From contig CP064967.1 in the NCBI GenBank assembly GCA_016699265.1, forward strand, positions 690,001 to 722,000: DNA of 32,000 bases, written 5' to 3'. How positions within the stretch are numbered: position 1 is the first letter of the stretch; each line of letters begins with the position of its first letter. This document shows positions 6,787 through 27,486 of the stretch, piece by piece. The stretch comes from Candidatus Saccharimonadota bacterium (lineage in GTDB: Bacteria > Patescibacteriota > Microgenomatia > UBA1406 > GWC2-37-13). Made by a program: the position numbers and the translations under genes. The notes under the pieces were generated by a model. That model was not told where the DNA came from, made no database searches, and saw only the letters and a list, made by a program, of their open reading frames with translations.

Positions 6787-6857
6787 GGGCCCGGAGTTAG
6801 ACGGTACAACGCTGCATTCGCATTGCAGAGGAAGGAGTTCAATTCTCCTCGGGTCCA
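6787..6857 (+). tRNA. tRNA-Ala (anticodon CGC)
   Basis: Acceptor GGGCCCG/CGGGTCC with the G3:U70 alanine identity pair. Anticodon stem CTGCA/TGCAG with loop TTCGCAT. T arm AGGAG-TTCAATT-CTCCT. Discriminator A. At 71 nt it is slightly non-canonical (G8, 4-nt variable loop). Confidence 0.85.
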
Positions 6858-6859
6858 CA

Positions 6860-6936
6860 GATCTAAGGAGTTTACCGACATAAAGTCGGGATCCCGATGG
6901 CGAACCGATCGGGGCAATTCCCTGCCGGCAGGCAGG
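6860..6936 (+). repeat. 77-nt insert carrying a double-hairpin repeat (copy A) plus a 12-nt perfect palindrome, flanked by 14-nt direct repeats
   Basis: tcctcgggtccaca occurs at 6846..6859 (the 3' end of tRNA-Ala) and again at 6937..6950. The insert contains agtttaCCGACataaaGTCGGgatCCCGATggcgaaccgATCGGGg (6869..6914), homologous to the copies at 17691, 21245 and 23527. It ends with CCTGCCGGCAGG (6921..6932). Confidence 0.85.
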
Positions 6937-6992
6937 TCCTCGGGTCCACATCTCTAACGGCTGAACTCTTTAGTATAATAAGCTATTGAGAA

Positions 6993-9387: not shown

Positions 9388-9435
9388 AGGCCACTACCCC
9401 AACGGGGCCCCTTCGGGGTGCGACCTCTCCTAAAT
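9388..9435 (-). repeat. Partial duplicate of the tRNA-Ser 5' end (5 flank nt plus tRNA nt 1-21) interrupted by a 22-nt GC-rich double hairpin
   Basis: 9419..9435 equals 9365..9381 (tgcgacctctcctaaat) and 9388..9396 equals 9356..9364 (aggccacta). The extra 22 nt are ccccaacggggccccttcgggg (9397..9418), which fold as CCCC-aac-GGGG plus CCCC-ttc-GGGG. Confidence 0.85.
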
Positions 9436-12495: not shown

Positions 12496-13041
12496 ATGGA
12501 AGGAGAAATAAAAATAGAAAATAAATTTAAGGGCAGTGTCCGACCTCTCATGGCTACGGACATCCCACACCTCAGACCAATTTTAGAATCGTGGCTCCGA
12601 TTTCCAACTATGACCGGAGAACTTTTAACTGAGGAGGTACGAGATACAATTGAGGAGATTCAAAAAAGCTTGACGCATGAGAATAATAAGCAATTTTTTG
12701 TTGCCCAATCTTCTGATGGAGCCGTTGTTGGAATGATGGGGATTCAGCCACTCAGTTGGGTCATGAGACCTTTTGCGCAAACTGTCCATCCTGCAGAAAT
12801 TATTAATGCATACGTTCATTTTGAAGAACGCCAAGGAAAGGGAGTTGGAAGAGCTTTGGTTAAAACAATTGAAGACGAATCAAAAAAGCAGGGATTTGAT
12901 GAACTCTTACTCAATAGTGGCCCACGATATAAAGAAACTGGCTGGCCATTTTGGCAGAAAACTTATGGCGAGCCTGTCGGAATAATCAAAAATCATTACG
13001 GTCCAACTCGAGATGCTCCTGTTTGGAGAAAAGTACTTTGA
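12496..13041 (+). CDS. GNAT family N-acetyltransferase
   Basis: VVGMMGIQ...ERQGKGVGRALVKTIEDESKKQGFDELLL is the GNAT acetyl-CoA-binding motif A (Q/RxxGxG/A). The ATG at 12496 follows the stop of the upstream gene. Confidence 0.88.
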   Translation: MEGEIKIENKFKGSVRPLMATDIPHLRPILESWLRFPTMTGELLTEEVRDTIEEIQKSLTHENNKQFFVAQSSDGAVVGMMGIQPLSWVMRPFAQTVHPAEIINAYVHFEERQGKGVGRALVKTIEDESKKQGFDELLLNSGPRYKETGWPFWQKTYGEPVGIIKNHYGPTRDAPVWRKVL

Positions 13042-14735
13042 GTGATGTCCTTACCGTCCTCTGTAAGAACTTTTAATTGTATAGGACTCCCACCGTGCAG
13101 ATTGACCCGCACCGCGTCATTCAATCTCCATATTTGATATTCAGCTACGTTCATATCGATTTCTTCTATTTGCTTATTTGGCCCAATCGTCTTCTCTCTG
13201 AACCTCACCTTTTGTAATTCCTCAAATAGTGACCGATCTACGTAGATGGCAATCTCTGCCTGCTGACTGCTTTGTGAACTTGGCCGAAAAACAACAGATT
13301 TCAATGCTTCACACCCACCAAAATGCTTAAATGATTCAGAATCAAGCAATACGCCTAATTCTTCTAGCTTCGTTCTGTCGTGTTGAGATATGGAAGAATC
13401 TCTATTTAAAATATTATTAATAATTGTCGATTTCACTCCTTCCTCTCCAAGATCAGTTCTTCCGAAAAACTCTCTATAGATTTGGGAGAATGCTGGATTT
13501 CTTTGAATTTGTGAGAATCGATCGTGTAATAAATCCAGGTTATCGCCAACTCGTAAAAGCGCGAGCATCGAATATCCAAGCGTATCGGCTTCACGAAACT
13601 CAAGACCAATTCGTTTATCTCCGGGTTCTAAATCAGTTTTCCTTCCATAGTAGAGCAAATCATCTGGGAGTGAGGTACTTGTCGTTGGATTGTCCCAAAA
13701 AACCCTTGGCATTTGTTCAGGATTTAACCCTCTCTTTGCAAATTCTTCTGCAAGCGCGTCTTCTATCCTCTGCTTTGCTTCTGGTGACTTTACCTTCACG
13801 ACGACCTCAGCTGGATTGAACCAGTCGAGATTCGGATCACTTTTACTTCTTTGTTCCCAAAGAGAAAGTACTTGAACTATATCCTGTTCATCTGCAAGTC
13901 CCAACCATTCACCTTTAGTCGTCTCAACTTTAGCTCCGTAGGATTTTTCTACCTTATCAGCGTTATGAAACAATACTGCTCCTTCAAAATCATTCATTAA
14001 CTTAGCTTGTTGGACATCAGTTAATTTATCTCGACCTGCAGACAGTAAATGTCTCATCTGTTCTTGGAGATTCTTATCTGAAACTATCCTCAGACCACCA
14101 ACGCTGTGAGCGACTTTATTACTTCCTCTTGCGAGGGCACAGTACCCACAGTCATGAAATAGTGCGGCATTTTCTATCATAAATTTCGCCTGGCCAGTCG
14201 AAAGACCATACTCCTCGGCCACAGAATCGAGAATCTGTGGAAAACTCTCGATTATCTGATTGGAATAATTAGCAACTCGTATAGAATGATCAAAACCGTG
14301 GGATACATACTGCTCTGGATTATCGTAGTGCTGATCGAAAGCTCTCTCTCCTAAAAAAAACATATGTTTTTGTAGAGCATCATCAAAGAGTCGTCGTTCT
14401 TCGGCGTCTGTTGGTACATCAAGCGATTCATATATCTTTGCTATTCGTTCAACCGGACTCATTCCTATAGACTCATCACGAGTATTAAAATATTTAAGAG
14501 TTTCAGTAATTTTTTTGAAATCGATTTGCTCAGTCGAGAGATGTTCTCCTATTTTTTTTACATGATTTTCAAGGCGTGCTGAAAGAAGGTTCGCTCTTGT
14601 TTTCCGTATTTCCGGAGCTTCAGCAGTAGCGATAGATCTTTCAAGATGTTGGATTACAAGATGTTGGATTACTTGTGCTTCAGGGAGAGTATTATTTACG
14701 GGAAGAGTAATCGTATGCGCCGTAACTTCTGCCAT
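12996..14735 (-). CDS. Large HD-domain (metal-dependent phosphohydrolase superfamily) protein
   Basis: 579 aa. HGFDHSIRVANY ... AALFHDCGY ... LFHNADK gives the H...HD...D pattern. About 300 further residues match no family I recognise. It is the last gene of the minus-strand ABC operon, with a 17-nt spacer. Confidence 0.85.
   Translation of the reverse strand: MAEVTAHTITLPVNNTLPEAQVIQHLVIQHLERSIATAEAPEIRKTRANLLSARLENHVKKIGEHLSTEQIDFKKITETLKYFNTRDESIGMSPVERIAKIYESLDVPTDAEERRLFDDALQKHMFFLGERAFDQHYDNPEQYVSHGFDHSIRVANYSNQIIESFPQILDSVAEEYGLSTGQAKFMIENAALFHDCGYCALARGSNKVAHSVGGLRIVSDKNLQEQMRHLLSAGRDKLTDVQQAKLMNDFEGAVLFHNADKVEKSYGAKVETTKGEWLGLADEQDIVQVLSLWEQRSKSDPNLDWFNPAEVVVKVKSPEAKQRIEDALAEEFAKRGLNPEQMPRVFWDNPTTSTSLPDDLLYYGRKTDLEPGDKRIGLEFREADTLGYSMLALLRVGDNLDLLHDRFSQIQRNPAFSQIYREFFGRTDLGEEGVKSTIINNILNRDSSISQHDRTKLEELGVLLDSESFKHFGGCEALKSVVFRPSSQSSQQAEIAIYVDRSLFEELQKVRFREKTIGPNKQIEEIDMNVAEYQIWRLNDAVRVNLHGGSPIQLKVLTEDGKDITQSTFLQTGASRVGP
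14642..14672 (-). repeat. Perfect 15-nt tandem duplication inside the HD-protein CDS
   Basis: caagatgttggatta occurs at 14642-14656 and again at 14657-14671. It is in frame and encodes the doubled peptide VIQHL-VIQHL near the N-terminus. Confidence 0.95.
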
Positions 14736-15977: not shown

Positions 15978-16646
15978 CTAAACGATCTTTCCATCAACTA
16001 TTCTTATCTGTCGTTTCGTTTTTGCTGCAATGTCCGGTTCGTGAGTGACTATCACAATCGTTATCTTGTCTTCCTTATTTAATTCTTTTAGGAGTTTCAT
16101 AATTTCGTCACCTGTCTTAGTATCGAGATTGCCGGTTGGCTCATCTGCCAAAATAAGACTTGGTTGCATAATGAGCGCTCGAGCAATAGCTACGCGTTGC
16201 TGCTGTCCTCCAGATATTTTATTAGGATACGACTTTGCTTTTTCCTTAATTCCAAATCTCTCGAGTAAATACATAGCCTTCTCCTCGGCTTTATATGTCA
16301 ATTTCTTTCTTGCATAGATTGATGGAAGCATTACGTTTTCAAGAACGGTAAGTTTATTGATGAGATTAAACTGTTGAAATACGAATCCTACATACTCATT
16401 ACGAAGGGTTGAGATCTCATCATCATCGAGCTTAGAAATATCTTGTCCATTTATTGAAACTTTTCCTGTCGATGGTTTGTCTAAAAGCCCGATAATGTGC
16501 ATGAGCGTTGACTTTCCACTACCGGAGGGGCCGATTATTGAGCAAAACTCGCCATCTTTTATCTGGACAGAAATATTACTTAGTGCGGTGAAGACAACCT
16601 CCTCATCGAGCTTATACTCTTTTGTAACATTCTCTATTTTAATCAT
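15978..16646 (-). CDS. ABC transporter ATP-binding protein (MacB/LolD-type)
   Basis: Walker [11 protein letters not shown]-loop, signature [15 protein letters not shown], Walker [14 protein letters not shown]-loop VTHE. The likely start is MIKIENV at 16646. The ORF is open to 16673. Confidence 0.95.
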
Positions 16647-17680
16647 AGACAACATCACCTTCTTGTAATCCATTTAGTATCACCGTTGCCGTGTCTATTT
16701 CTTCACCGACCTCCACCGTTGTTTTTACTTTCTTTTCTCCAACTTTTTTCATTACATATTTCTTGCCACTTTCTGATTTAATAAAGGTTGTTGGTACGCC
16801 AATAACACCAACCATCTTCTTAGTGATGAACTCAACGTCTCCCGTCATCCCTAAACGATATTTCAGTTGAGCGCTATCAGAACTATCGGGAGAGGTGCTA
16901 ATCTTAACTTCATATACCGTTCCTGTTTCATCTGATTTAGGAGTAAACGCAATGGACTGTATGGTAGCTGATGTGGTCTCGTCTGGAAAAGAATCGTAAC
17001 TAATTTGACCCTTCATTCCTTCGTACATTTTCACAACATCAGTTTGATCCACAGCTCCTGAGAAATAAAGAGTTTCTGGGTTTACAATTACGAACTCGGC
17101 TTGCGTAGGGGTTATATTAACACCAGCCTGCTTGGTGCCAACCGAAGTAACAACACCAGCGATAGGCGAAACCAGAGTTGAATAACGAAGGGAGATGTCC
17201 GACAGTTCAACATCTAGAACTGAGCTATTAAGATCGAACTGCACTTTTTATATGCATCGATCGTGTCCTGTCTCAGATATTTATCTGGAGATAGTGCATG
17301 CTCATCGGTATCCATTGCCGTGTTGTCAAATGTAAGCCTTTGTTTATCATAGGTAATAAGTTCTTTCTCTAGTTGTTTCTTTAACTGTCTCTGATCCAGC
17401 GATGCTATTGATTGATACTTTTTTACCACATCACCTTCTGTTACCCCTACCCATGCGAGACGACCAGATGTCTGGAAGCGAAGAGTTGCCTTCTCCTGAG
17501 CATCTACTGATCCCGAAAATGTCAATGACTCGCTTAGTGTCTGTCGTTTTACTTTATAGGTCAACTCCACAACGGTACTTTTTTTACCCACAGTCTGACC
17601 ATAAACAATCCAACCAACAACGAAAATAATTATGAGTATGATCCACCAGCGTTTTTAATAATATTAAGCAGTTTCTTCAT
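16639..17680 (-). pseudogene. MacA/HlyD-family periplasmic adaptor broken by two frameshifts at homopolymers
   Basis: The ATG at 17680 gives MKKLLNIIK and then terminates. Adding one base to the T5 run at 17652-17656 gives MKKLLNIIKKRWWIILIIIIFVVGWIVYGQTVGKKST..., which continues into ORF 17214..17591. Adding one base to the T5 run at 17245-17249 gives ...DAYKKVQFDLNSSV..., which joins ORF 16639..17244. Confidence 0.8.
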
Positions 17681-17690
17681 AGTTTATTTT

Positions 17691-17738
17691 AGTTTTTCCC
17701 GATTTACGATCGGGATCCCGATTCTGAGGCAATCGGGG
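17691..17738 (+). repeat. Double-hairpin intergenic repeat, copy B
   Basis: The sequence is agtttttCCCGATttacgATCGGGatCCCGATtctgaggcaATCGGGg. It lies directly after the stop of 17739..18869 and upstream of the macA-like gene. Confidence 0.85.
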
Positions 17739-18869
17739 TCATAGGAACGGTGCCCAGTTACCCACCGGCATAGCATTTCCTTGCAGAAAGGTCCATGCGT
17801 AGAGATATACAGCGGGCACAATCAGTATAAACGAAATGACTGTCCTTTTTGAGGTTAAATATTTTTCGAACACGATGCATGTGATTGGCAACATTGGCAA
17901 AGCGTAACGCGATATGTCTCGATGTTGTACGAAAATTAAACTAAAGAAAAAGGTAAGCGAAAAGTAAAATAAAATCTGCATCTTATGTTTATATGTATAA
18001 ACCACAGTTAAAGCATAGATTGCAAAGGTGAGTAGAACATCTTCAAGCCAGTGAGTACCTACCCATTTTGCGCTAGCATTGAATGCTGCGTATGGATAAG
18101 GCATCGGTACAACGTAACCCGTGTGCCAATATGCAAAGAGGTCACCCATCTGCTGCTGATAGATAAGACAGACCGCAGCAAGCCCTGCAGGAATAAGGAA
18201 AAGCCATAACCATCCAGACTCAAATCGCTTCTCCTCCCTCATCCTTTGTACCGCTGAAAATCCATAAGCTGCAAGTAAAAGAATTCCTGGTAGCTTTGTC
18301 ATCGTCGCGAGTCCACCTACTAAACCAGCAAATACGTACTTTTTCTTTTCGAAGAAAAAAAGTGAGAGCAAAATGAGCAACATAAATAAACTCTCTGGAG
18401 AACCGATCGACCGCACAACTAAAAATCGGGGGAACATTAAAAATACGAATGTGAGGAGTAGGGGTTTAGTACTGAGTTTTTGAGATTGTACGAAGTAATA
18501 AAAAAACCAACCGAGCAGTACTGTAGAGAGAAGCGTTACAAACATCATCGATTTTACATAACCCAAACCATATGCAAATCCACGAATGAGCCCTGGAAAG
18601 AGAGGAAGATGTGCAGCAAAGTACTCGGGAGTAAGTCCCCCTTCAAGCCGTAGCGAGTTAATTGCTGATGGTAGATACCATGATTTAGCTGCTATCACAT
18701 ATAGGAGTCCATCAAAGTTACGATATATGAGCGAGGTATCGGTATTTGGAATATGCATACCGAGAAAGCCTAATTGTTGAACAAACGGCAACCATACTAC
18801 CATGCTCGAGATAAGGGTGAAAAGAAGAATATAGAGGTAGTTTTTATACGTCCTGAAAAACCACTGCAT
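17739..18869 (-). CDS. GT-C-fold membrane glycosyltransferase, PIG-V/DUF2029-like (putative mannosyltransferase)
   Basis: 376 aa with about 10 TM helices. NFDGLLYVIAAKSWY resembles the PIG-V-type WDxxxYxxIAxxGY loop. The family call is from memory. Confidence 0.75.
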   Translation of the reverse strand: MQWFFRTYKNYLYILLFTLISSMVVWLPFVQQLGFLGMHIPNTDTSLIYRNFDGLLYVIAAKSWYLPSAINSLRLEGGLTPEYFAAHLPLFPGLIRGFAYGLGYVKSMMFVTLLSTVLLGWFFYYFVQSQKLSTKPLLLTFVFLMFPRFLVVRSIGSPESLFMLLILLSLFFFEKKKYVFAGLVGGLATMTKLPGILLLAAYGFSAVQRMREEKRFESGWLWLFLIPAGLAAVCLIYQQQMGDLFAYWHTGYVVPMPYPYAAFNASAKWVGTHWLEDVLLTFAIYALTVVYTYKHKMQILFYFSLTFFFSLIFVQHRDISRYALPMLPITCIVFEKYLTSKRTVISFILIVPAVYLYAWTFLQGNAMPVGNWAPFL

Positions 18870-20489: not shown

Positions 20490-21239
20490 ATGCACGTAAC
20501 CCTTATTATTCCTTGCTATAACGAGGAGAAAAATATTCAAAAAGGAGTGTTAGATAGAATAGCAAACTATGTTCAAGATCATAAGCACTTCACGGAGGTT
20601 GTTATAGTTGATGACGGATCAACGGACTCAACCAAGGAAATTATCAAAAAAGAATATCTCCCCAAATTTAAGTTCTTCAGGTTGGTTGAAAATAATCATG
20701 AGGGAAAAGCGCGCGCTGTGATAGAAGGAATTAGACAATCTAAGGAACCGTTTGTAATGTTCACTGATATTGACCTCGCAACTCCGCTTGAAGAGTCTGA
20801 AAAACTCATAGCGCAGGCGGAAAAAGGATTCGATATTGTGATAGGATCACGTAACTCAACTCGCGAAGGTGCTCCGATTCTTCGCAAGGTAATGGCGGTA
20901 GGATTTATCGTAATTCGCAACCTCGCCCTCGGTCTTCACAAAATCCGAGACACCCAGTGTGGCTTTAAGCTCTTCAACCGGGATGTGGCACTAGCAATTA
21001 TTGATTGCATTAGACTATTCGACAGACAGAAAACGGTTACGGGCTCCTCGGTATCAGCAGCATTCGATCTCGAGTTTCTCTTTCTAGCGTCTAAAATGAA
21101 AAAAAGAATTATGGAGGTCCCGGTGATATGGCGTCATGTTGAGACAAAAAATGTTACCTTCTTCCACGACGTTTTAGAAACGCTTCGAGGAATTGCAGTC
21201 ATTATGTACCATAACGTAAGAGGAGACTATAACAATTAG
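20490..21239 (+). CDS. GT2 polyprenyl-phosphate hexose synthase (Alg5/Dpm1/GtrB-like)
   Basis: LIIPCYNEEKNI ... VVIVDDGSTDST ... GKARAV ... FTDIDLATP ... DTQCGFKLF are the signature blocks of Alg5/GtrB-type polyprenol-phosphate glycosyltransferases. Confidence 0.9.
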   Translation: MHVTLIIPCYNEEKNIQKGVLDRIANYVQDHKHFTEVVIVDDGSTDSTKEIIKKEYLPKFKFFRLVENNHEGKARAVIEGIRQSKEPFVMFTDIDLATPLEESEKLIAQAEKGFDIVIGSRNSTREGAPILRKVMAVGFIVIRNLALGLHKIRDTQCGFKLFNRDVALAIIDCIRLFDRQKTVTGSSVSAAFDLEFLFLASKMKKRIMEVPVIWRHVETKNVTFFHDVLETLRGIAVIMYHNVRGDYNN

Positions 21240-21244
21240 TTCTT

Positions 21245-21288
21245 AGTTTCCCGATTTCGATCGGGATCCTCGATTCTGAGGAATAGGG
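21245..21288 (+). repeat. Double-hairpin intergenic repeat, copy C
   Basis: The sequence is agtttCCCGATttcgATCGGGatCCTCGATtctgaggAATAGGG. It starts 6 nt after the stop of the GT2 gene and aligns end to end with copy B. Confidence 0.85.
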
Positions 21289-21290
21289 AC

Positions 21291-21318
21291 TTATTTCTTA
21301 TTTCTTATTTCTTATTTA
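21291..21318 (+). repeat. Heptamer tandem repeat (ttatttc x3 plus ttattta)
   Basis: Read directly from the sequence: ttatttc at 21291, 21298 and 21305, then ttattta at 21312. Confidence 0.9.
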
Positions 21319-21333
21319 AAAATTAATAACTGA

Positions 21334-22905
21334 ATAAAAATTAAAAACTTCAAATTAAAAATTCAATCTTATTGGCCATTAATACTCATACTTTCGGTAG
21401 TCGGTTTTCTTTTGACCTTTAGGCTTGGTCGTGATTTGTTACTGGACTGGGACGAATGTATTTATGCAGGCTATGCAATCAGCATGAAGATGGGTAGTTC
21501 GGCGCTTCATAATACGTGGAATACATTAGGTCTGTTTGAAAAATCTCCGTTTTATTCATGGATCTTGCAGCTGCCACTACTTTTTCAGAAAACTGAATTT
21601 AATCTTCGACTTCCAACAGTTCTCGCAAGTTTAACGCTTCTTGGATCGATCTACGTTTTTTGTCAGACCTATTTCTCAAAGAGAATAGCGGTAATCTCGA
21701 CGCTTCTCATGCTCACATTCGAATCGTATGTCATTTATTCTACAAAGGTCTCAACCGACGTCCTCTTTTCACTGTTTATATTTTCTGGTTTTTGGACCTG
21801 GGTATCGTCTGCAAATGGTAAAGGAAAAAGGTCGAAATTACTCGTATGGATGAGCGGAGTTTTTTTTGCGTTTGCGCTGATGGTCAAGGGATTAGGTGTT
21901 GCTCCTTATATGGGAACACTGTTCCTTTCAATTTTACTCCAACCAAAGAAAAATCGATTCTTCGATTTTTTCAAAATGCTCACCTCATTTATTGTGATTG
22001 GACTCCCATGGCATCTTCTGATGTACCTCACGCATCAAAAGGAATTTATACAGATGTATTTAGTCGATAATTTTTATAAACGTTCAACCTTTCCTGTAGA
22101 GTTTCACCGAGAGCGAATTTGGTTTTATCTTGACCTTCTTTACAAGGAATCATTTCCGTGGATCTTTGCACTATTCATAGCGCCTTTATCGGTCATCCTG
22201 AATGCAGTGAAGGATCTAGCAAAGCGAACCAAGAAAGGATCTGGATTTCTTGCATTCACCCTGCCTACCGGCAGATAGTTCGGAATGACAGTTCGGGGAC
22301 AAATTGAGAAAAATAGTCTCACTTATACAGTTTTCTTATTCGTGCTCCTACCTCTCATATCTATTTCACGAGTCCAAACTCGAATTGCATGGTATGTGAT
22401 TCCACTACTCCCGTACCTTTCCATTTTTCTCGCGATTTGCCTGAATCTGGTCTTTGATTTTATGAAGAAAAAAAATAAAGTACTAAGTAATGTACTTTTT
22501 GTTCTCTTATTAATTTTAATCATCTTGGATGTAGGAAAATTAATCCTGAACGAAACACGATTTACGCAAAGTAAACCAACAATTGATTCAAGATATGAGG
22601 TAATTTTGCAGTCCTCAAAACTACAAGGCAGTGTTCTCAACTACCTCGTTCCGTTTGGCGAACGACAGGCCAAGGTTATACTCCCTCTAGATGAGACGCT
22701 TACGAACACTTGGTACTACGGGGGCAATGCCTGCGCCGTCTACTACAGTAATAAAAAAGTAAATTACTTCTATGAGATAGAGGCATTTGAGAAAGCTTTT
22801 ACCCAAAATGATGGCCTCTTCCTCATCTCAAACCAAGACGCAAAATACGCAGAAGATAAGGTGATTTTATTTAAAAATGCCGACTATACCTTGTTTACTT
22901 TCTAG
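21334..22905 (+). pseudogene. GT-C (ArnT/PMT_2-like) paralogue with an in-frame TAG and no canonical start for its first TM helix
   Basis: ORFs 21412..22278 and 22285..22905 are in the same frame, separated only by TAG at 22276-22278 (...LPTGR*FGMTVRGQ...). Together they are about 495 aa, like the paralogues. The frame is open from 21334 and encodes the expected TM1 (YWPLILILSVVGFLLTFRLG...DWDECIYAGYA), but there is no ATG, GTG or TTG before 21412. Confidence 0.7.
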
Positions 22906-23494
22906 CCAATCTTCCTCGAAGACTAAGTGTGGCGATCAAAATATTTATCAGAAATAAATATACGGGGAATAGTAGATTTGCTACATCGAACTTCGTCGTA
23001 GACAAAACTCCAACAAATGCGGCCGTAGCAAAGATAAAAAATGCAGAAGGCGTCTCTGACATTGGATCGCTGAAAGACTTTTTAATAGTTGGCATAGAAA
23101 CAATTAGATCTGCAATTACAGATAGGACCAGAGCCGTTAGTGGATTTTTAGTTATCATCCATAACGCGATAGCCAAAAAACCGAAGATCAGACTTAATCT
23201 ATCAAACAATGTGTACTTTGTTACTCCGTACTTTAATGACAACAAAAAAGTAATTCCAGTTCCAAGTAAGTCTCCTATTAACAACAAAACGGAAAAACTG
23301 GCCCCTTCTTTTATCTGTGCAGCGGCTCCAATGCTCAATAATATTGTCCAACCAAGCCAAGAAACTGAGTTTGGCCTGGTTTTACCGTTCAAAATATCTC
23401 GAATATATGGGACGATCGCGAAGAATATGAGAAGTCCGGACAGAAGTCCGAGCACTGCATGCCAGTCGTACATTCCTAATACTACCAAATTCAA
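22895..23494 (-). CDS. 7-TM membrane protein with two PQ-loop-like motifs (paralogue 1)
   Basis: 199 aa with 3+1+3 TM helices. The motifs VPYIRDILNGKTRPNSVSW (after TM1) and MPTIKKSFSDPMSETPSAF (after TM5) are shared with the neighbouring paralogue. Confidence 0.8.
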   Translation of the reverse strand: MNLVVLGMYDWHAVLGLLSGLLIFFAIVPYIRDILNGKTRPNSVSWLGWTILLSIGAAAQIKEGASFSVLLLIGDLLGTGITFLLSLKYGVTKYTLFDRLSLIFGFLAIALWMITKNPLTALVLSVIADLIVSMPTIKKSFSDPMSETPSAFFIFATAAFVGVLSTTKFDVANLLFPVYLFLINILIATLSLRGRLARK

Positions 23495-23526
23495 CCAGAC
23501 AAGGGCCTTACAGCACTTTAATTATT

Positions 23527-23572
23527 TTTCCGAGTTCTCAGAATCGCGATTCCCGATTTTATGTTGGGAAAA
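23527..23572 (-). repeat. Double-hairpin intergenic repeat, copy D (inverted orientation, diverged)
   Basis: The reverse complement reads ttttcccaacataaaatcgggaatcgcgattctgagaactcggaaa. This aligns with copy B (tttcccgatttacgatcgggatcccgattctgaggcaatcgggg). It lies between the two PQ-loop-like genes. Confidence 0.65.
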
Positions 23573-23586
23573 TAATAGAAACAAAC

Positions 23587-24159
23587 TTATTTCTTTCTTC
23601 CCTTTATCAAAACCCCTACAAGTATAAGGTTGGCTAAAAATACAGCTGACGGGTAGAGCGCAGTGATTAGGGAAATCTTTTCTAGAGCAAATATGGATAT
23701 AAAATGTTTGATTGCCGCAAAATTATGAGTCGAAAGGGTTTCCTCGTAAGGCTTCTTTAAGCTTTTTCTAATCGTGGGATAAAACGCAGCAACATCAATA
23801 AATGTTACGAGAATGATCGAAAGTAAAGCGTTCCTCACAATTATGAACAGGAATGTGGCGCCAACAACTCCGGCCAACATGACTTTATCACTCCTCGTGA
23901 TATCTTTCGTGCCAAACTTAAAAGACAAGGCGAGTATTAACAAGCAGAGTATGGCGGTAACACCGGTGGTCCAGGCACCTGCACCAGCTCCGTCGCTCAT
24001 CTGAGAGAAGAAGGCCATAAATGTGAGAGGTGTCCAGATCACCCATGTGTAAAGATGCGGCTTAGTTTTCTTTTTTACGATATCGGATATATACGGAAAT
24101 AAACTAAAAATACTTATTACGACAGCGGTGATTCCGAGTATTTCCTTGATATTAGGCAT
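23587..24159 (-). CDS. 7-TM membrane protein with two PQ-loop-like motifs (paralogue 2)
   Basis: 190 aa. FPYISDIVKKKTKPHLYTW and YPTIRKSLKKPYEETLSTH occupy positions equivalent to the motifs in 22895..23494. Confidence 0.8.
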   Translation of the reverse strand: MPNIKEILGITAVVISIFSLFPYISDIVKKKTKPHLYTWVIWTPLTFMAFFSQMSDGAGAGAWTTGVTAILCLLILALSFKFGTKDITRSDKVMLAGVVGATFLFIIVRNALLSIILVTFIDVAAFYPTIRKSLKKPYEETLSTHNFAAIKHFISIFALEKISLITALYPSAVFLANLILVGVLIKGRKK

Positions 24160-24234
24160 AGTTGTAGACCGAATGAAGAGTTAAAACCGATCCCTCTTGA
24201 GAGTTGGACATTGAAGTATTATATAATAATTGTG

Positions 24235-25755
24235 ATGTTTGACATATCTGGCTTTGTCAATTGGTTCCGAAAAAACTTTTCAAAGCGCGATCTTTTTTAT
24301 ACTGCCTTACTACTCGTCACTTATCTCGCAACTCGCCTCATAAATCTTGATAAGTTTCCGATTTTCACCGATGAGGGCATCTATATTCACTGGTCCAAGA
24401 TTGCTTGGAAGGATGCGGCGTGGCGCTTTATTTCTCTAACTGATGGGAAACAACCGCTACACACCTGGGGAATGATTCCATTTCTCAAGATATTTTCACC
24501 CAACCTTCTGTTAGGTGGCCGAATGTTTTCTATACTCTCAGGACTGATCGCGCTCAAAGGAGTTTTTTCTCTCTCCTACTATCTCTGGGGTAAAAAAACA
24601 GCTTTTATAGCCTCACTGTTCTACATCTTCACTCCGATGTTTCTATTTTATGACAGAATGGCGCTTGCCGATTCAGCTGTTAACGCAGGATTTATCTGGA
24701 TACTATTTGGGTCGATTCTTCTTATAAGAACGCTGAGAATGGATGTAGCTCTCGCGTTTGGCCTTGCTGCAGGTACAGCCATGCTTACTAAATCTTCCTC
24801 ACAGATGTTTGTGGCGCTCAGTGGACTCGCACCTGTACTCGCTTTCAAGAAAAAGTCCTTCATCAAAAATTCTTTCAGTTTCTATGTACTTTTCGTTTTT
24901 GCCTATGTCCTAGCGCTGGTCATTTACAACGTACAAAGACTCTCTCCTTATCTTCAGTATGTCGATCAAAAAAATGGCACTTTTGTTCTCACATTCAAAG
25001 AGTTCTTCGCAGCGCCATTCTCTCTGGTGATAAGCAATCTACCCCTAATTCCGTGGTATGTGTTTTCTGAAATGGGCTACGCATTAGGAGTTATCGGAGT
25101 GGTGGGATTATTTTTCTTGATCAAAAAAGATTGGAGATTGGGTCTCTATCTTGCAGCATGGCTTCTATTCCCCTATGTTGCTATTTCATTTTTTGCCAAG
25201 GTAATCTTTCCCCGATATCTTATATTTTTTGCTACGCTCCTAACTTTGACTGCAGCTTATTTAATCAGTAGTACAAAAAATAAGACAGTCAAAGTTCTCT
25301 GTTTCACGTTCTACGCTCTAAGTGTCGGTTACTTCAACTATGCAATATTATTCGATAATCAGAAAATTCCGTTCCCTCCTGTTGATCGCGGACAGTACAT
25401 CGAAAGTGTGAACGCAGGATATGGAATCAAAGATCTAATTCAGTATGCTCGTGAAAAATCTATGGATAAACCCGTTATTCTACTCGCCGAGGGAAACTTT
25501 GGCGTCGTAGGCGACATGTTAGAGTCATCGATCGGAATAGGTGAAAAAATTAGCATCAGAGGATTCTGGCCCCTAAATGCAAAGGACCTCTACGACAATC
25601 AGAAAGAACTTGCGAATAACCATGTGTATGTGGTTTATTCCCACAGAAAGCTTTCCGAGATCGATTCCTCATGGCCATTACGCCTCATTAAGGAATATAG
25701 GAGACCGTTTGGAGACTCAAGCTTTACCCTTCTTGAACTTACCAGCGCTAATTAG
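24235..25755 (+). CDS. GT-C-fold glycosyltransferase, ArnT/PMT_2 (GT39/GT83)-like
   Basis: TM1 followed by RLINLDKFPIFTDEGIYIHWSKIA, the DE-containing first periplasmic loop typical of ArnT/PMT. About 11 TM helices and a soluble C-terminal domain. The ATG at 24235 is preferred over the TTG at 24211. Confidence 0.85.
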   Translation: MFDISGFVNWFRKNFSKRDLFYTALLLVTYLATRLINLDKFPIFTDEGIYIHWSKIAWKDAAWRFISLTDGKQPLHTWGMIPFLKIFSPNLLLGGRMFSILSGLIALKGVFSLSYYLWGKKTAFIASLFYIFTPMFLFYDRMALADSAVNAGFIWILFGSILLIRTLRMDVALAFGLAAGTAMLTKSSSQMFVALSGLAPVLAFKKKSFIKNSFSFYVLFVFAYVLALVIYNVQRLSPYLQYVDQKNGTFVLTFKEFFAAPFSLVISNLPLIPWYVFSEMGYALGVIGVVGLFFLIKKDWRLGLYLAAWLLFPYVAISFFAKVIFPRYLIFFATLLTLTAAYLISSTKNKTVKVLCFTFYALSVGYFNYAILFDNQKIPFPPVDRGQYIESVNAGYGIKDLIQYAREKSMDKPVILLAEGNFGVVGDMLESSIGIGEKISIRGFWPLNAKDLYDNQKELANNHVYVVYSHRKLSEIDSSWPLRLIKEYRRPFGDSSFTLLELTSAN

Positions 25756-27486
25756 TACGACGACTCCAATCACCGATACGATCGATGTTGCATTTGCCCA
25801 GGTTCTGATCGGAGTATCCTCAAAACGAAACTCAAGACTATGCTCGCCCTTTGGCACCTGAACCGTGATAAGTTTAAATCTATTTCTATCGTTGATAGGA
25901 AGTACGCCACCATCAATCCTTCCAGTCCACCCGGGAAAGTGAAAGGTATTGAGTTGAAACGTGCTCAATCTTTTTGCATTTAATAAAAATACTTTTTTGT
26001 TAAAGCTATTCTCGACGATCTGAACAGACGCTCGCCCCTTGATCACTTTGTAAGGATTTTTTGGAACCTGATATTTTGATATATCAAAGATACTTGTATC
26101 ATACTGAGACTTTCTCAGGGGTACTCCTCTGGGACTAAACTCAAACGAACTTGAACTTACATTCCATGCGATCTCGTTAAATGATGTTAATTCACTATCT
26201 TTTTTATACACATAATTTTCTGGTTTAAAGTATTTTTGATACTGAAGAATTGTTCCGGTAATGACAATTAATGATAAAAACATTATTACTCTATCATTCC
26301 CGACCCGATCGGGAATCCAATTTATTGGGTTTCTGGATCCCCGCTTGCGCGAGGATGACAATACCTCATGTATATATTCGAAACTGTAGCCACCAAGCAA
26401 AGAAATAAATATTCCCGCAAAGGTTAAAAACCTCCATGGAAACTGCAGGTACTGAAGTGGTTGAATAGCGTCCCAAATGATTCGCGAATACTCGGTCGTC
26501 ATGAAAAGACTGAATAATAACATTGCAACGTAGACCGCATATCGTATAGCGTATTTCGTATCAATTTTTTTCTTCAATATTAAGAATAAGAACAAAATGA
26601 GTGATAGAACGGCCAGACCAATTTGTATTTTTCCAAGTTGAAAACTCATACCATCCGTGAGTCCAAGCCCAGAGCCACCATATCCCCACTGAGAAAACCA
26701 GAGTTGAGACGGCTGGATAAAGTGAATTGAGTATGAAGCAAGTTCCTTTGTGAGAATCGAGTCTACTAGCGTAAACTTTCTTTCAAGCATTGAAGGAAGC
26801 CAATAAAAAGCTGACAGCAGCGCTCCCAACAAACCTCCTAGAGCAACGTAAACTACATACTTAAACCTTTTTGAGACATAGAAAGAAGAGCCTAGAACAT
26901 AAATCGCGCAGAAAAAAATAAAAGGAAAAGCCACAAAGACATGACTCATAATGAGTAGGGCCACAATTACACCAAAGAACACAGCGCGTCTGACCGTTGC
27001 TTTTTCTCGTAAGAGTTCTAAACTCAAAAATGCAAAAGGCAGAAGGTTCATCCCATAAAATTCGGCAAATGCCCCTCGTACATAAACCAAAACAGCATGG
27101 TATGTAAAAAAAGTAAACAAAGTTGCGGTTACTAAACCTACAACCTTTGATCTTATAACCTTCAAACCTAATAGATACATTCCCACTGCCCCCAACAAAT
27201 ATCCAGAGATTATCATTGCCTTAACCGACCAAATATACGACGCGCCGATAAGCCTGTACATTTCCGAAATATAATAAATAAACGGAGGGTAAAAATTAAA
27301 GAGCGGGTACCCAAAGTTGAATCCAAGTACGTCGACCCATCGAGGAAACAAATATCCCTGATGGATCCCTTGATCTAGTAAAAATAGCCTTGCGATATGC
27401 TGAAAGTCGTGCACTGAAAAGTACCATGGATTTAACAAACTTACAAATGAGGGAATTGCTATAATCAGAAGTAGCAGGAAGTACAT
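25717..27486 (-). CDS. Large GT-C-like membrane protein (YfhO/ArnT-like architecture)
   Basis: 589 aa. HDFQHIARLFLLDQGIHQGYLFPRWVDVLGFNFGYPLFNFYPPFIYY is an N-terminal loop typical of YfhO-like GT-C proteins (from memory). It has many TM helices and a C-terminal beta-rich domain plus a TM anchor. Confidence 0.8.
   Translation of the reverse strand: MYFLLLLIIAIPSFVSLLNPWYFSVHDFQHIARLFLLDQGIHQGYLFPRWVDVLGFNFGYPLFNFYPPFIYYISEMYRLIGASYIWSVKAMIISGYLLGAVGMYLLGLKVIRSKVVGLVTATLFTFFTYHAVLVYVRGAFAEFYGMNLLPFAFLSLELLREKATVRRAVFFGVIVALLIMSHVFVAFPFIFFCAIYVLGSSFYVSKRFKYVVYVALGGLLGALLSAFYWLPSMLERKFTLVDSILTKELASYSIHFIQPSQLWFSQWGYGGSGLGLTDGMSFQLGKIQIGLAVLSLILFLFLILKKKIDTKYAIRYAVYVAMLLFSLFMTTEYSRIIWDAIQPLQYLQFPWRFLTFAGIFISLLGGYSFEYIHEVLSSSRKRGSRNPINWIPDRVGNDRVIMFLSLIVITGTILQYQKYFKPENYVYKKDSELTSFNEIAWNVSSSSFEFSPRGVPLRKSQYDTSIFDISKYQVPKNPYKVIKGRASVQIVENSFNKKVFLLNAKRLSTFQLNTFHFPGWTGRIDGGVLPINDRNRFKLITVQVPKGEHSLEFRFEDTPIRTWANATSIVSVIGVVVLISAGKFKKGKA
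26297..26318 (+). repeat. Copy E of the first hairpin of the repeat family, inside the CDS 25717..27486
   Basis: ttcccgacccgatcgggaatcc aligns with ttcccgatttacgatcgggatcc of copy B. It contains the perfect palindrome cccgatcggg. On the minus strand it is translated as ...NWIPDRVGNDR... in a hydrophilic loop. Confidence 0.6.

Follow-up and report, generated by a model that had tools for sequence, protein, structure and literature searches.

Double-hairpin repeats in genomes of Patescibacteria: a probable, very small non-autonomous insertion element

Introduction

Among described systems, the best-supported analogies for the repeats treated in this article would be the palindromic elements of Rickettsia, which they appear to resemble in being inserted in frame into genes, and the double-hairpin elements of fungal mitochondria, which they appear to resemble in anatomy. 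The repeats, each made of two abutting hairpins, lie in a stretch of 32,000 nucleotides (nt) from the genome of a Candidatus Saccharimonadota bacterium (GenBank assembly GCA_016699265.1, contig CP064967.1, positions 690,001 to 722,000 of the forward strand), and "the window" below means this whole stretch. We argue that they are probably a very small, non-autonomous and selfish insertion element.

As summarised in PMC10969869, the Rickettsia palindromic elements of Ogata et al. (2000) are about 100-150 bp long, fall into ten families, are confined to one genus, lie in frame within unrelated housekeeping genes, where they are translated, as well as between genes, and have no linked transposase (PMC10969869). 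Set against that summary, the repeats described here are likewise palindromic, present both in frame in housekeeping genes and in intergenic positions, and without a linked transposase, but they measure 36-48 nt, consist of two discrete hairpins, lack sequence similarity to the Rickettsia elements, and have a stem that is nearly identical across classes of Patescibacteria and in Omnitrophota. The element is thus far smaller than its Rickettsia counterparts and is common to phylum-level lineages.

Fungal mitochondrial double-hairpin elements are short and mobile, consist of two adjacent hairpins, and occupy intergenic and sometimes genic positions; these elements, or GC clusters, of fungi were reportedly treated by Paquin, Laforest and Lang in 2000. 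The two-hairpin anatomy and the combination of intergenic and genic sites recur here, whereas the mitochondrial elements belong to eukaryote organelles, have unrelated sequences and have no stem common to distant lineages.

By definition, repetitive extragenic palindromic (REP) sequences and their REPIN arrangements lie outside genes; a genome holds hundreds of them, they are specific to a species, and they accompany a REP-flanked gene for a REP-associated tyrosine transposase (RAYT). They are moved in trans by this enzyme (TnpA_REP), which acts on folded single strands, and they can stabilise the upstream mRNA. With them the present element has in common short GC-rich hairpins, often in doublets, a preferred short flanking motif and genome-specific families; it differs in being half intragenic, in a copy number that looks low, in stems shared across phyla, and in that no RAYT was seen in the domains of the window or among recurrent neighbours (8-kb tiles around the copies and about 52 kb of this species). 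Palindrome-associated transposable elements (PATE) derive from IS200/IS605 insertion sequences with recognisable tnpA/tnpB, and their left-end and right-end hairpins differ from each other and bear guide sequences. Hairpin ends, the lack of a signature of terminal inverted repeats and target duplication, polar insertion beside a short motif and a strand bias are shared with the element, yet neither guide-bearing distinct ends nor tnpA/tnpB were found here, and the strand bias tracks transcription and not a replication proxy.

A further system combines conserved stems with variable inner segments in genomes of the candidate phyla radiation (CPR), namely the tandem interspaced guide RNA (TIGR) arrays. 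Their units contain two spacers of 9 nt, or of 8-10 nt in the definition applied here, box C/D motifs and a loop of about 9 nt, are arranged in arrays beside or inside a tas gene, and can be in frame inside coding sequence (bioRxiv 10.64898/2026.09.09.750476). The identification of the repeats as TIGR units was rejected on anatomy, as their loops are 3-11 nt and they are solitary and dispersed in housekeeping genes; there is no Nop-domain gene in the window and no tas-like gene nearby.

Copies of the element in the window

A preliminary description of the window had listed four copies, A to D, with a common architecture of two adjacent hairpins. All four are there, A and B intact and C and D partly decayed, and the architecture is borne out by A and B, each of which is two abutting 7-bp hairpins. 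Copy A (core 6873-6914, plus strand) reads TACCGAC-ataaa-GTCGGGA followed by TCCCGAT-ggcgaaccg-ATCGGGG and lies 15 nt 3' of a tRNA-Ala gene. Copy B (core 17697-17738, plus strand) reads TCCCGAT-ttacg-ATCGGGA followed by TCCCGAT-tctgaggca-ATCGGGG; it abuts the TGA of the minus-strand gene 17739-18869 and occupies most of the 59-nt spacer to the start codon at 17679, which is the start used in other strains, both flanking genes being on the minus strand. Copy C (21249-21289, plus strand) begins 10 nt past the TAG (21237-21239) of a glycosyltransferase family 2 (GT2) gene at 20490-21239 and has a whole first hairpin (TCCCGAT-ttcg-ATCGGGA) and a decayed second one (TCCTCGAT...AGGGA) with a 1-nt insertion. 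Copy D (23527-23572, minus strand), a GGGAATC variant with both hairpins degraded, lies between two small hypothetical genes, 14 nt past the stop codon of 23587-24159 (minus strand). As had been described, each of the four directly follows a stop codon or a tRNA. The AGTTT extension at the 5' side, given as part of the architecture, occurs in the copies of this species and is not a feature of the family.

An additional decayed copy of 45 nt, copy E, lies at 26296-26340 (plus strand), in frame within the minus-strand open reading frame (ORF) 25717-27486, which encodes a PF10131 membrane protein; its contribution is the peptide GSRNPINWIPDRVGN, 15 amino acids (aa), and it keeps one hairpin, ATTCCCGA-cccga-TCGGGAAT, with a perfect 8 bp. 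This copy was found with a covariance model built from 101 copies in other genomes together with A and B, which gives 41.5 bits (E 4e-9) for B, 37.3 bits (E 5e-8) for A, 26.4 bits (E 2e-5) for C, 12.3 bits (E 0.06) for the copy E site (match 26294-26334) and 10.1 bits (E 0.2) for D. Given its score, copy D is a weak family member whose inclusion rests chiefly on its likeness to B and C. A repeat search of the window pairs A with B (73% over 44 nt) and C with D (79% over 28 nt), and CGATTCTGAG has three exact matches in the window, in B, C and D. No more than five copies occur in about 52 kb around and including the window, and four of the five fall within one glycosyltransferase cluster of 9 kb. 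Directly 3' of copy C is a tandem repeat, (CTTATTT) x4, at 21290-21317, and a similar string, ACTTATTTCTT, adjoins copy D (23586-23600).

Contigs from two NCBI assemblies, as well as several metagenome contigs, match the window at 99.2-99.8% identity. For one of its proteins the closest named homologues belong to Candidatus Roizmanbacteria, which places the organism in the Microgenomates group of the CPR/Patescibacteria. Presence/absence polymorphism between strains had been proposed as a check, and none was found for B, C, D or E in 11 same-species contigs wherever the fetched stretch covers the site; copy A is unchanged in same-species contigs L001-L003 (loci and contigs are cited here by L numbers). 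The copies in this species are old and fixed, not active: three of the five are decaying and all are fixed.

Extent, consensus and structure of the family

A scan of one genome per species was made with the pattern CCGAY-N3-6-RTCGGGATCCCGAY-N3-10-RTCGGG, for which chance is estimated to give about 0.5 matches in 596 Gb. The strict pattern is matched in at least 120 stretches of species-representative genomes, so that copies beyond A-D are found both in this species and well outside it; all counts for the family below are based on 122 instances in 120 stretches among the matches listed. Most of these are Patescibacteria by record title (Saccharibacteria, Minisyncoccia, and Nomura-, Pacei-, Adler-, Gottesman-, Roizman-, Falkow-, Magasanik-, Uhr-, Buchanan-, Vogel-, Taylor- and Harrisonbacteria), and Omnitrophota account for five and WOR-1 for one; further matches bear Planctomycetota or third-party "Gammaproteobacteria" labels and yet are low in GC, and two or three high-GC matches look like products of chance. 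The family is patchy and not ubiquitous, since about 540 kb of unrelated metagenome contigs, picked via a glycosyltransferase gene, contain no copy outside this species.

The consensus is TCCCGAC-loop-GTCGGGA twice over, that is, two abutting 7-bp hairpins (TCCCGAY/RTCGGGA) with variable loops of 3-11 nt, in a unit of 36-48 nt that is solitary and dispersed. The commonest form, of 39 nt, is TCCCGAC-GTAAA-GTCGGGA-TCCCGAC-CGAAGC-GTCGGGA, and a 36-nt form has two 4-nt loops; longer loops are self-complementary around GAA or GAAA. Pairs from the same genome are more alike than pairs from different genomes (similarity 0.78 vs 0.62, p = 2e-12), and genome-specific subfamilies occur: one Saccharibacteria genome, for example, holds five copies whose loops are GCAAG and YCAGAAGRC, and other genomes have identical pairs. 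Covariation is seen at the innermost pair of the stem, C-G being replaced by U-A 13 and 10 times in hairpins 1 and 2 with 3-4 mismatches, and its covariation score was reached by none of 500 shuffles; the remaining stem positions are fixed by the search pattern and hence uninformative. The stems are maintained through compensatory change, which answers the call for a covariation check in the affirmative. No structured-RNA or terminator family of Rfam accounts for the copies: tRNAs alone (seven in the window) attain the gathering score, and at permissive thresholds the best hits, with E values of 0.2 or worse, are to unrelated families.

No match to the element was found in cultured phages and plasmids, and strict-pattern matches in IMG/VR come from one lineage only, five related tailed-phage fragments (L009, L010, L011, L018, L025) with a GC content of 52-61%, in which a unit CCCGAC-nnnn-GTCGGGATCCCGAY-nnnn-RTCGGG sits between the portal and scaffold/major-head genes (e.g., L018 3800-3835). 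Three hairpins stand in tandem at L056 5040-5115, and variant stems (GCCGAC/GTCGGC, TCCGAC/GTCGGA, CTGCC/GGCAG) are joined to canonical hairpins, the tandem and variant loci being, besides the one in L056, L054 525-570, L100 6940-6985, L104 456-500, L118 470-510 and L121 7310-7351. Such tandem and variant stems suggest a wider set of interchangeable hairpin modules, with more degenerate copies than the strict count includes. In the full-text literature searched, with the motif string among the queries, no description of the family was found, which does not disprove that one exists elsewhere.

Insertion into genes and spacers

The preliminary description placed the repeats at gene ends, which fits this window but not the family: 57 of the 122 instances fall inside ORFs of 100 aa or more, where they are read through, and the others fill short intergenic spacers, 10 of which are divergent, with many copies starting no more than about 35 nt from a stop codon. 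Intragenic copies are read in different frames and on both strands, giving peptides such as ...SRRKVGIPTEASG..., ...PDVKSGSRPKRRD... and ...PTxVGIPTxVG.... Confirmed host proteins are SecA, GltX, topoisomerase I (TopA), an RNB-family RNase, GyrB, NusA, sigma-70, a MurD-like ligase, ComEC, a P-type ATPase and a radical-SAM methylthiotransferase. Near its C-terminus, NusA holds an element in several genomes (L036 80-1423, twice; L136 3960-5246; L125 4200-5444; L114 7171-8000), which could mark a hot spot of insertion or a shared insertion of old date.

Empty sites are known for several copies. For the secA copy of L118, the PDB alignments, like those of GltX, are too distant to delimit the insert, and close homologues were used instead: most of the 120 closest (about 80% identical) read YDATHKEE/DKERD across the site, and about 15 of the 120 bear 12-17 additional residues exactly at that point, e.g., VPTEVGIPTGVGK. 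The 15 aa contributed by copy E are missing from all 12 of the closest homologues (56-69% identical). In the syntenic relatives L156 and L148, with 46-58% protein identity, the sites of B and C are taken by a 24-nt spacer or by overlapping genes, and the whole 1.3-kb segment that bears copy D (22905-24211) is lacking. This segment, whose two small minus-strand hypothetical genes (22895-23494 and 23587-24159) have no Pfam match, is possibly a lineage-specific insertion in the glycosyltransferase cluster, to judge from this comparison. Between orthologous genes, these alignments show the presence or absence of the element as a block. Together with its occurrence at unrelated sites in at least 120 stretches and its genome-specific subfamilies, this supports in substance the earlier proposal of a non-autonomous mobile element.

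The consensus is open in five of the six reading frames, and the length of the element is divisible by 3 in 35 of 49 intragenic copies, as against 27 of 56 elsewhere. The element survives where harm is slight, in short spacers, or in protein loops when the frame is kept. Split genes and translational bypass were considered for the tandem cases with very short flank distances and rejected, these being ordinary stop-spacer-start junctions.

tRNA genes and the insertion site

Exact insertion junctions can be read at tRNA genes. For nine of the 98 tRNA genes in 1.6 Mb of sequence, the first 10 nt recur no more than 200 nt upstream, against about 0.02 such cases by chance; a double-hairpin insert interrupts this extra 5' fragment in all nine, and no uninterrupted fragment occurs among the 98. 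The cases that involve the main family come to eight loci (L029, L052, L053, L055 twice, L086, L100, L110). With the intact neighbouring tRNA as reference, GCCTGGGTAG followed directly by CTCAGTT becomes GCCTGGGTAG, 39 nt of element and CTCAGTT, with no base duplicated or lost. Insertions into tRNA fragments are nearly always directly 3' of AG (TAG, element, CTCAG), and across the family, with copies oriented by their loops, the left flank prefers A (62%) followed by G (66%) and the right flank C (46%). There is no covariation between the two flanks or between the element ends; the flanks vary independently, which points to a target preference and to neither a paired stem nor a duplication. 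Where the uninterrupted sequence is known, then, the comparisons show insertion that is precise, free of target duplication and mostly placed right after AG.

An intact tRNA gene adjoins each interrupted fragment, and excising the element never restores a tRNA, so that a tRNA intron was rejected. The intact gene may reflect rescue of an essential gene by recombination, or it may be a property of the insertion process.

Two arrangements in the window are related to these. At 9397-9418 (minus strand) there is a 22-nt double mini-hairpin of another kind, CCCC-gaa-GGGG followed by CCCC-gtt-GGGG (CCCCGAAGGGGCCCCGTTGGGG), which splits a duplicated tRNA-Ser 5' fragment (9430-9419 and 9396-9388, minus strand; GGAGAGGTCGCA...TAGTGGCCT); the fragment is followed by 11 nt of filler and then by the intact tRNA-Ser gene (9376-9291), a layout like that of the main family at tRNA genes. 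At the 3' end of the tRNA-Ala gene, a 14-nt direct repeat, TCCTCGGGTCCACA, at 6847-6860 and, 91 nt downstream, at 6938-6951 (plus strand), brackets a 77-nt insert that contains copy A and an adjoining extra hairpin, CCTGCC-ggca-GGCAGG, at 6921-6936 (plus strand). A CTGCC/GGCAG module also adjoins elements in L054 and L100, and comparable tRNA 3'-end repeats with hairpins occur in L072 and L076.

Orientation and possible mobilisation

Copies were oriented by the strand whose loops are rich in purines (GTAAA, CGAAGC, GAA-type). For 41 of 50 intragenic copies (41:9) this strand coincides with the sense strand of the host gene, and for 25 of 30 tandem spacers (25:5) with that of the flanking genes. 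Coding constraint does not account for the bias, as more frames are open in the opposite orientation. Where the local gene disagrees with the majority gene direction or the GC skew of its 8-kb tile, the element sides with the local gene, by 9:2 and 12:4 respectively. These small numbers favour a constraint or mechanism linked to transcription over one linked to the replication strand, and on the same small numbers a replication-strand cause was rejected.

Enzymes of the HUH/Y1 type, as in the IS200/IS605-RAYT group of transposases, act on folded single-strand hairpins. The hairpin anatomy, the precise and duplication-free insertion, the polar AG target and the strand bias all resemble HUH-type single-strand transposition, and we infer by this analogy that the element may have been moved in trans by an enzyme recognising the folded hairpins on one DNA strand. 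The single-stranded DNA could have been provided by the non-template strand of transcribed DNA or by a replication intermediate. Effects on mRNA, for example of hairpins at operon junctions, would be a by-product or a later co-option.

A bolder version of this reading holds that the repeats are a new class of mobile element and not a decayed transposon: a module of about 39 nt that goes in with a fixed polarity to transcription, either into the non-template strand or by way of an RNA copy, and is served by machinery that is conserved across Patescibacteria and Omnitrophota and encoded apart from the element. Landing in tRNA genes at AG^CT would then be coupled to regeneration of an intact tRNA downstream, with the interrupted 5' fragment as its scar, a part that gains support from the finding that 9 of 98 tRNAs have such a fragment, all with a hairpin insert. 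We offer this version tentatively and regard it as doubtful.

Competing explanations

The main rival to a selfish insertion element is a role at the RNA level, in which the repeat would be a cis-acting signal at operon junctions (a terminator without a U-tract, a 3'-end stabiliser or an RNase processing site), kept by selection and having spread, or arisen repeatedly, because it is useful. The placement of copies A-D after a stop codon or a tRNA, the many copies elsewhere that begin close to a stop codon, and the strong sense-strand bias in spacers as well as in ORFs are all what such a signal would lead one to expect, as are stems that covary and are kept across phyla and the stable two-hairpin RNA folds of A-C, at -16 to -20 kcal/mol, although the z-scores of these folds are modest (-0.9 to -3.7). 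The copies have no T-run, however, the flank downstream of them is A-rich, and a terminator scan is blank at their positions; 47% of copies lie inside essential ORFs and 10 in divergent intergenic regions, relatives lack copies at the corresponding junctions, and C, D and E are decaying though fixed in the species. A canonical bidirectional intrinsic terminator, AAAAACCCCGCC-gac-GGCGGGGTTTTT with A- and T-runs, is present at 1586-1612 between convergent genes (the DUF1189/DUF378 side and groEL), so this CPR genome uses ordinary terminators. The suggestion that the repeats are terminators by identity is not supported by these observations, and the wider RNA-signal explanation is unlikely. A side effect on mRNA stabilisation or processing is possible, with the orientation bias mildly in favour, and an RNA-level role could coexist with mobility as a co-opted effect.

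It is very unlikely that the repeats are a classical miniature inverted-repeat transposable element (MITE), i.e., the joined terminal inverted repeats of a DDE-type insertion sequence, moved by its transposase with duplication of the target site. In favour of a MITE, the ends TCCCGAC...GTCGGGA form inverted repeats by construction, dispersed copies fall into genome-specific subfamilies, and the SecA insert, at 39 nt against a 36-nt core, leaves up to 3 bases unaccounted for. Against this stand junctions that, judged by the adjacent intact tRNA, carry no duplication, flanks that neither repeat nor covary, an interior of two complete hairpins rather than one long hairpin, and a neighbourhood of about 0.85 Mb around the copies (8-kb tiles) with no longer element bearing these ends and no transposase. 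The label "REP/MITE-like" given to the repeats in the preliminary description is thus apt in substance and inexact in both terms. The family has hairpins and an AG left flank (G, 66%), and its copy number is five in about 52 kb of this species. The element is not a strict REP, because its members are not extragenic (57 of 122 are in ORFs, as is copy E) and no RAYT was seen, and the lack of a target-site duplication sets it apart from a classical MITE.

Least probable of all is that the heptamers are sites for a protein that binds double-stranded DNA (a competence uptake signal, an operator or a nucleoid protein), as might be read from the conserved heptamer with its variable loops, the conservation across lineages that share habitats, and the fact that uptake signals of other bacteria are also found inside genes and as inverted pairs, since recognition of half-sites does not predict the compensatory innermost change (C-G to T-A), the longer loops can pair with themselves, the motif comes as one discrete block of 36-45 nt and not via point mutation, and its density (5 in 52 kb; none in 540 kb of other contigs) is far under that of known uptake signals.

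The selfish insertion element that we consider probable has several observations to contend with, which are best set out together. No linked transposase emerged from the 899 ORFs of 120 loci, which were clustered without yielding a protein family in more than six loci among the matches listed, and a domain search of the window, in agreement with what had been said of it, found no transposase or integrase. Single hairpins flanking an ORF, or a longer element with such ends, were not seen in the 0.85 Mb around the copies, where most "single" hairpins are halves of degenerate doublets. The lack of polymorphism among the 11 contigs makes mobility in this species a historical inference, and copy number in this genome looks low, at five in about 52 kb. 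Near-identical stems across phylum-level lineages are unusual for a selfish repeat and could instead mean a selected function, empty alleles could in principle arise by precise deletion, and the transcription-linked orientation bias would also fit an RNA-level role.

Other features of the window

Indels of 1 nt in T-runs at 17245, 17652 and 17693 set the window apart from all other contigs of the species. An HlyD-like gene is split in the window into ORFs 16639-17244 and 17214-17591, its product being 347 aa elsewhere, and a PMT-family glycosyltransferase gene is split into ORFs 21412-22278 and 22285-22905, against 471-489 aa elsewhere; both splits are likely homopolymer assembly errors, and otherwise the genes are pseudogenes. 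The minus-strand ORF 12996-14735 contains a 15-nt in-frame tandem duplication (CAAGATGTTGGATTA twice, at about 14642-14671) that is not in the same-species contig L147.

Implications

The genomes of Patescibacteria are tiny and streamlined, and the usual description of them is repeat-poor. Insertions of about 40 nt, found across phyla in secA, topA, gyrB, nusA and rpoD, would rank among the smallest mobile DNAs known and would give rise to length variation in the proteins of essential genes. In metagenome-assembled genomes they would be both a nuisance and a marker, as they can confuse gene calling, alignments and phylogenies based on marker proteins. The conserved stem, the transcription-linked orientation and the constant tie to duplicated tRNA 5' fragments point to a mobilisation mechanism or host factor, and the family supplies a defined sequence that is testable in the few cultivated, genetically tractable Saccharibacteria.

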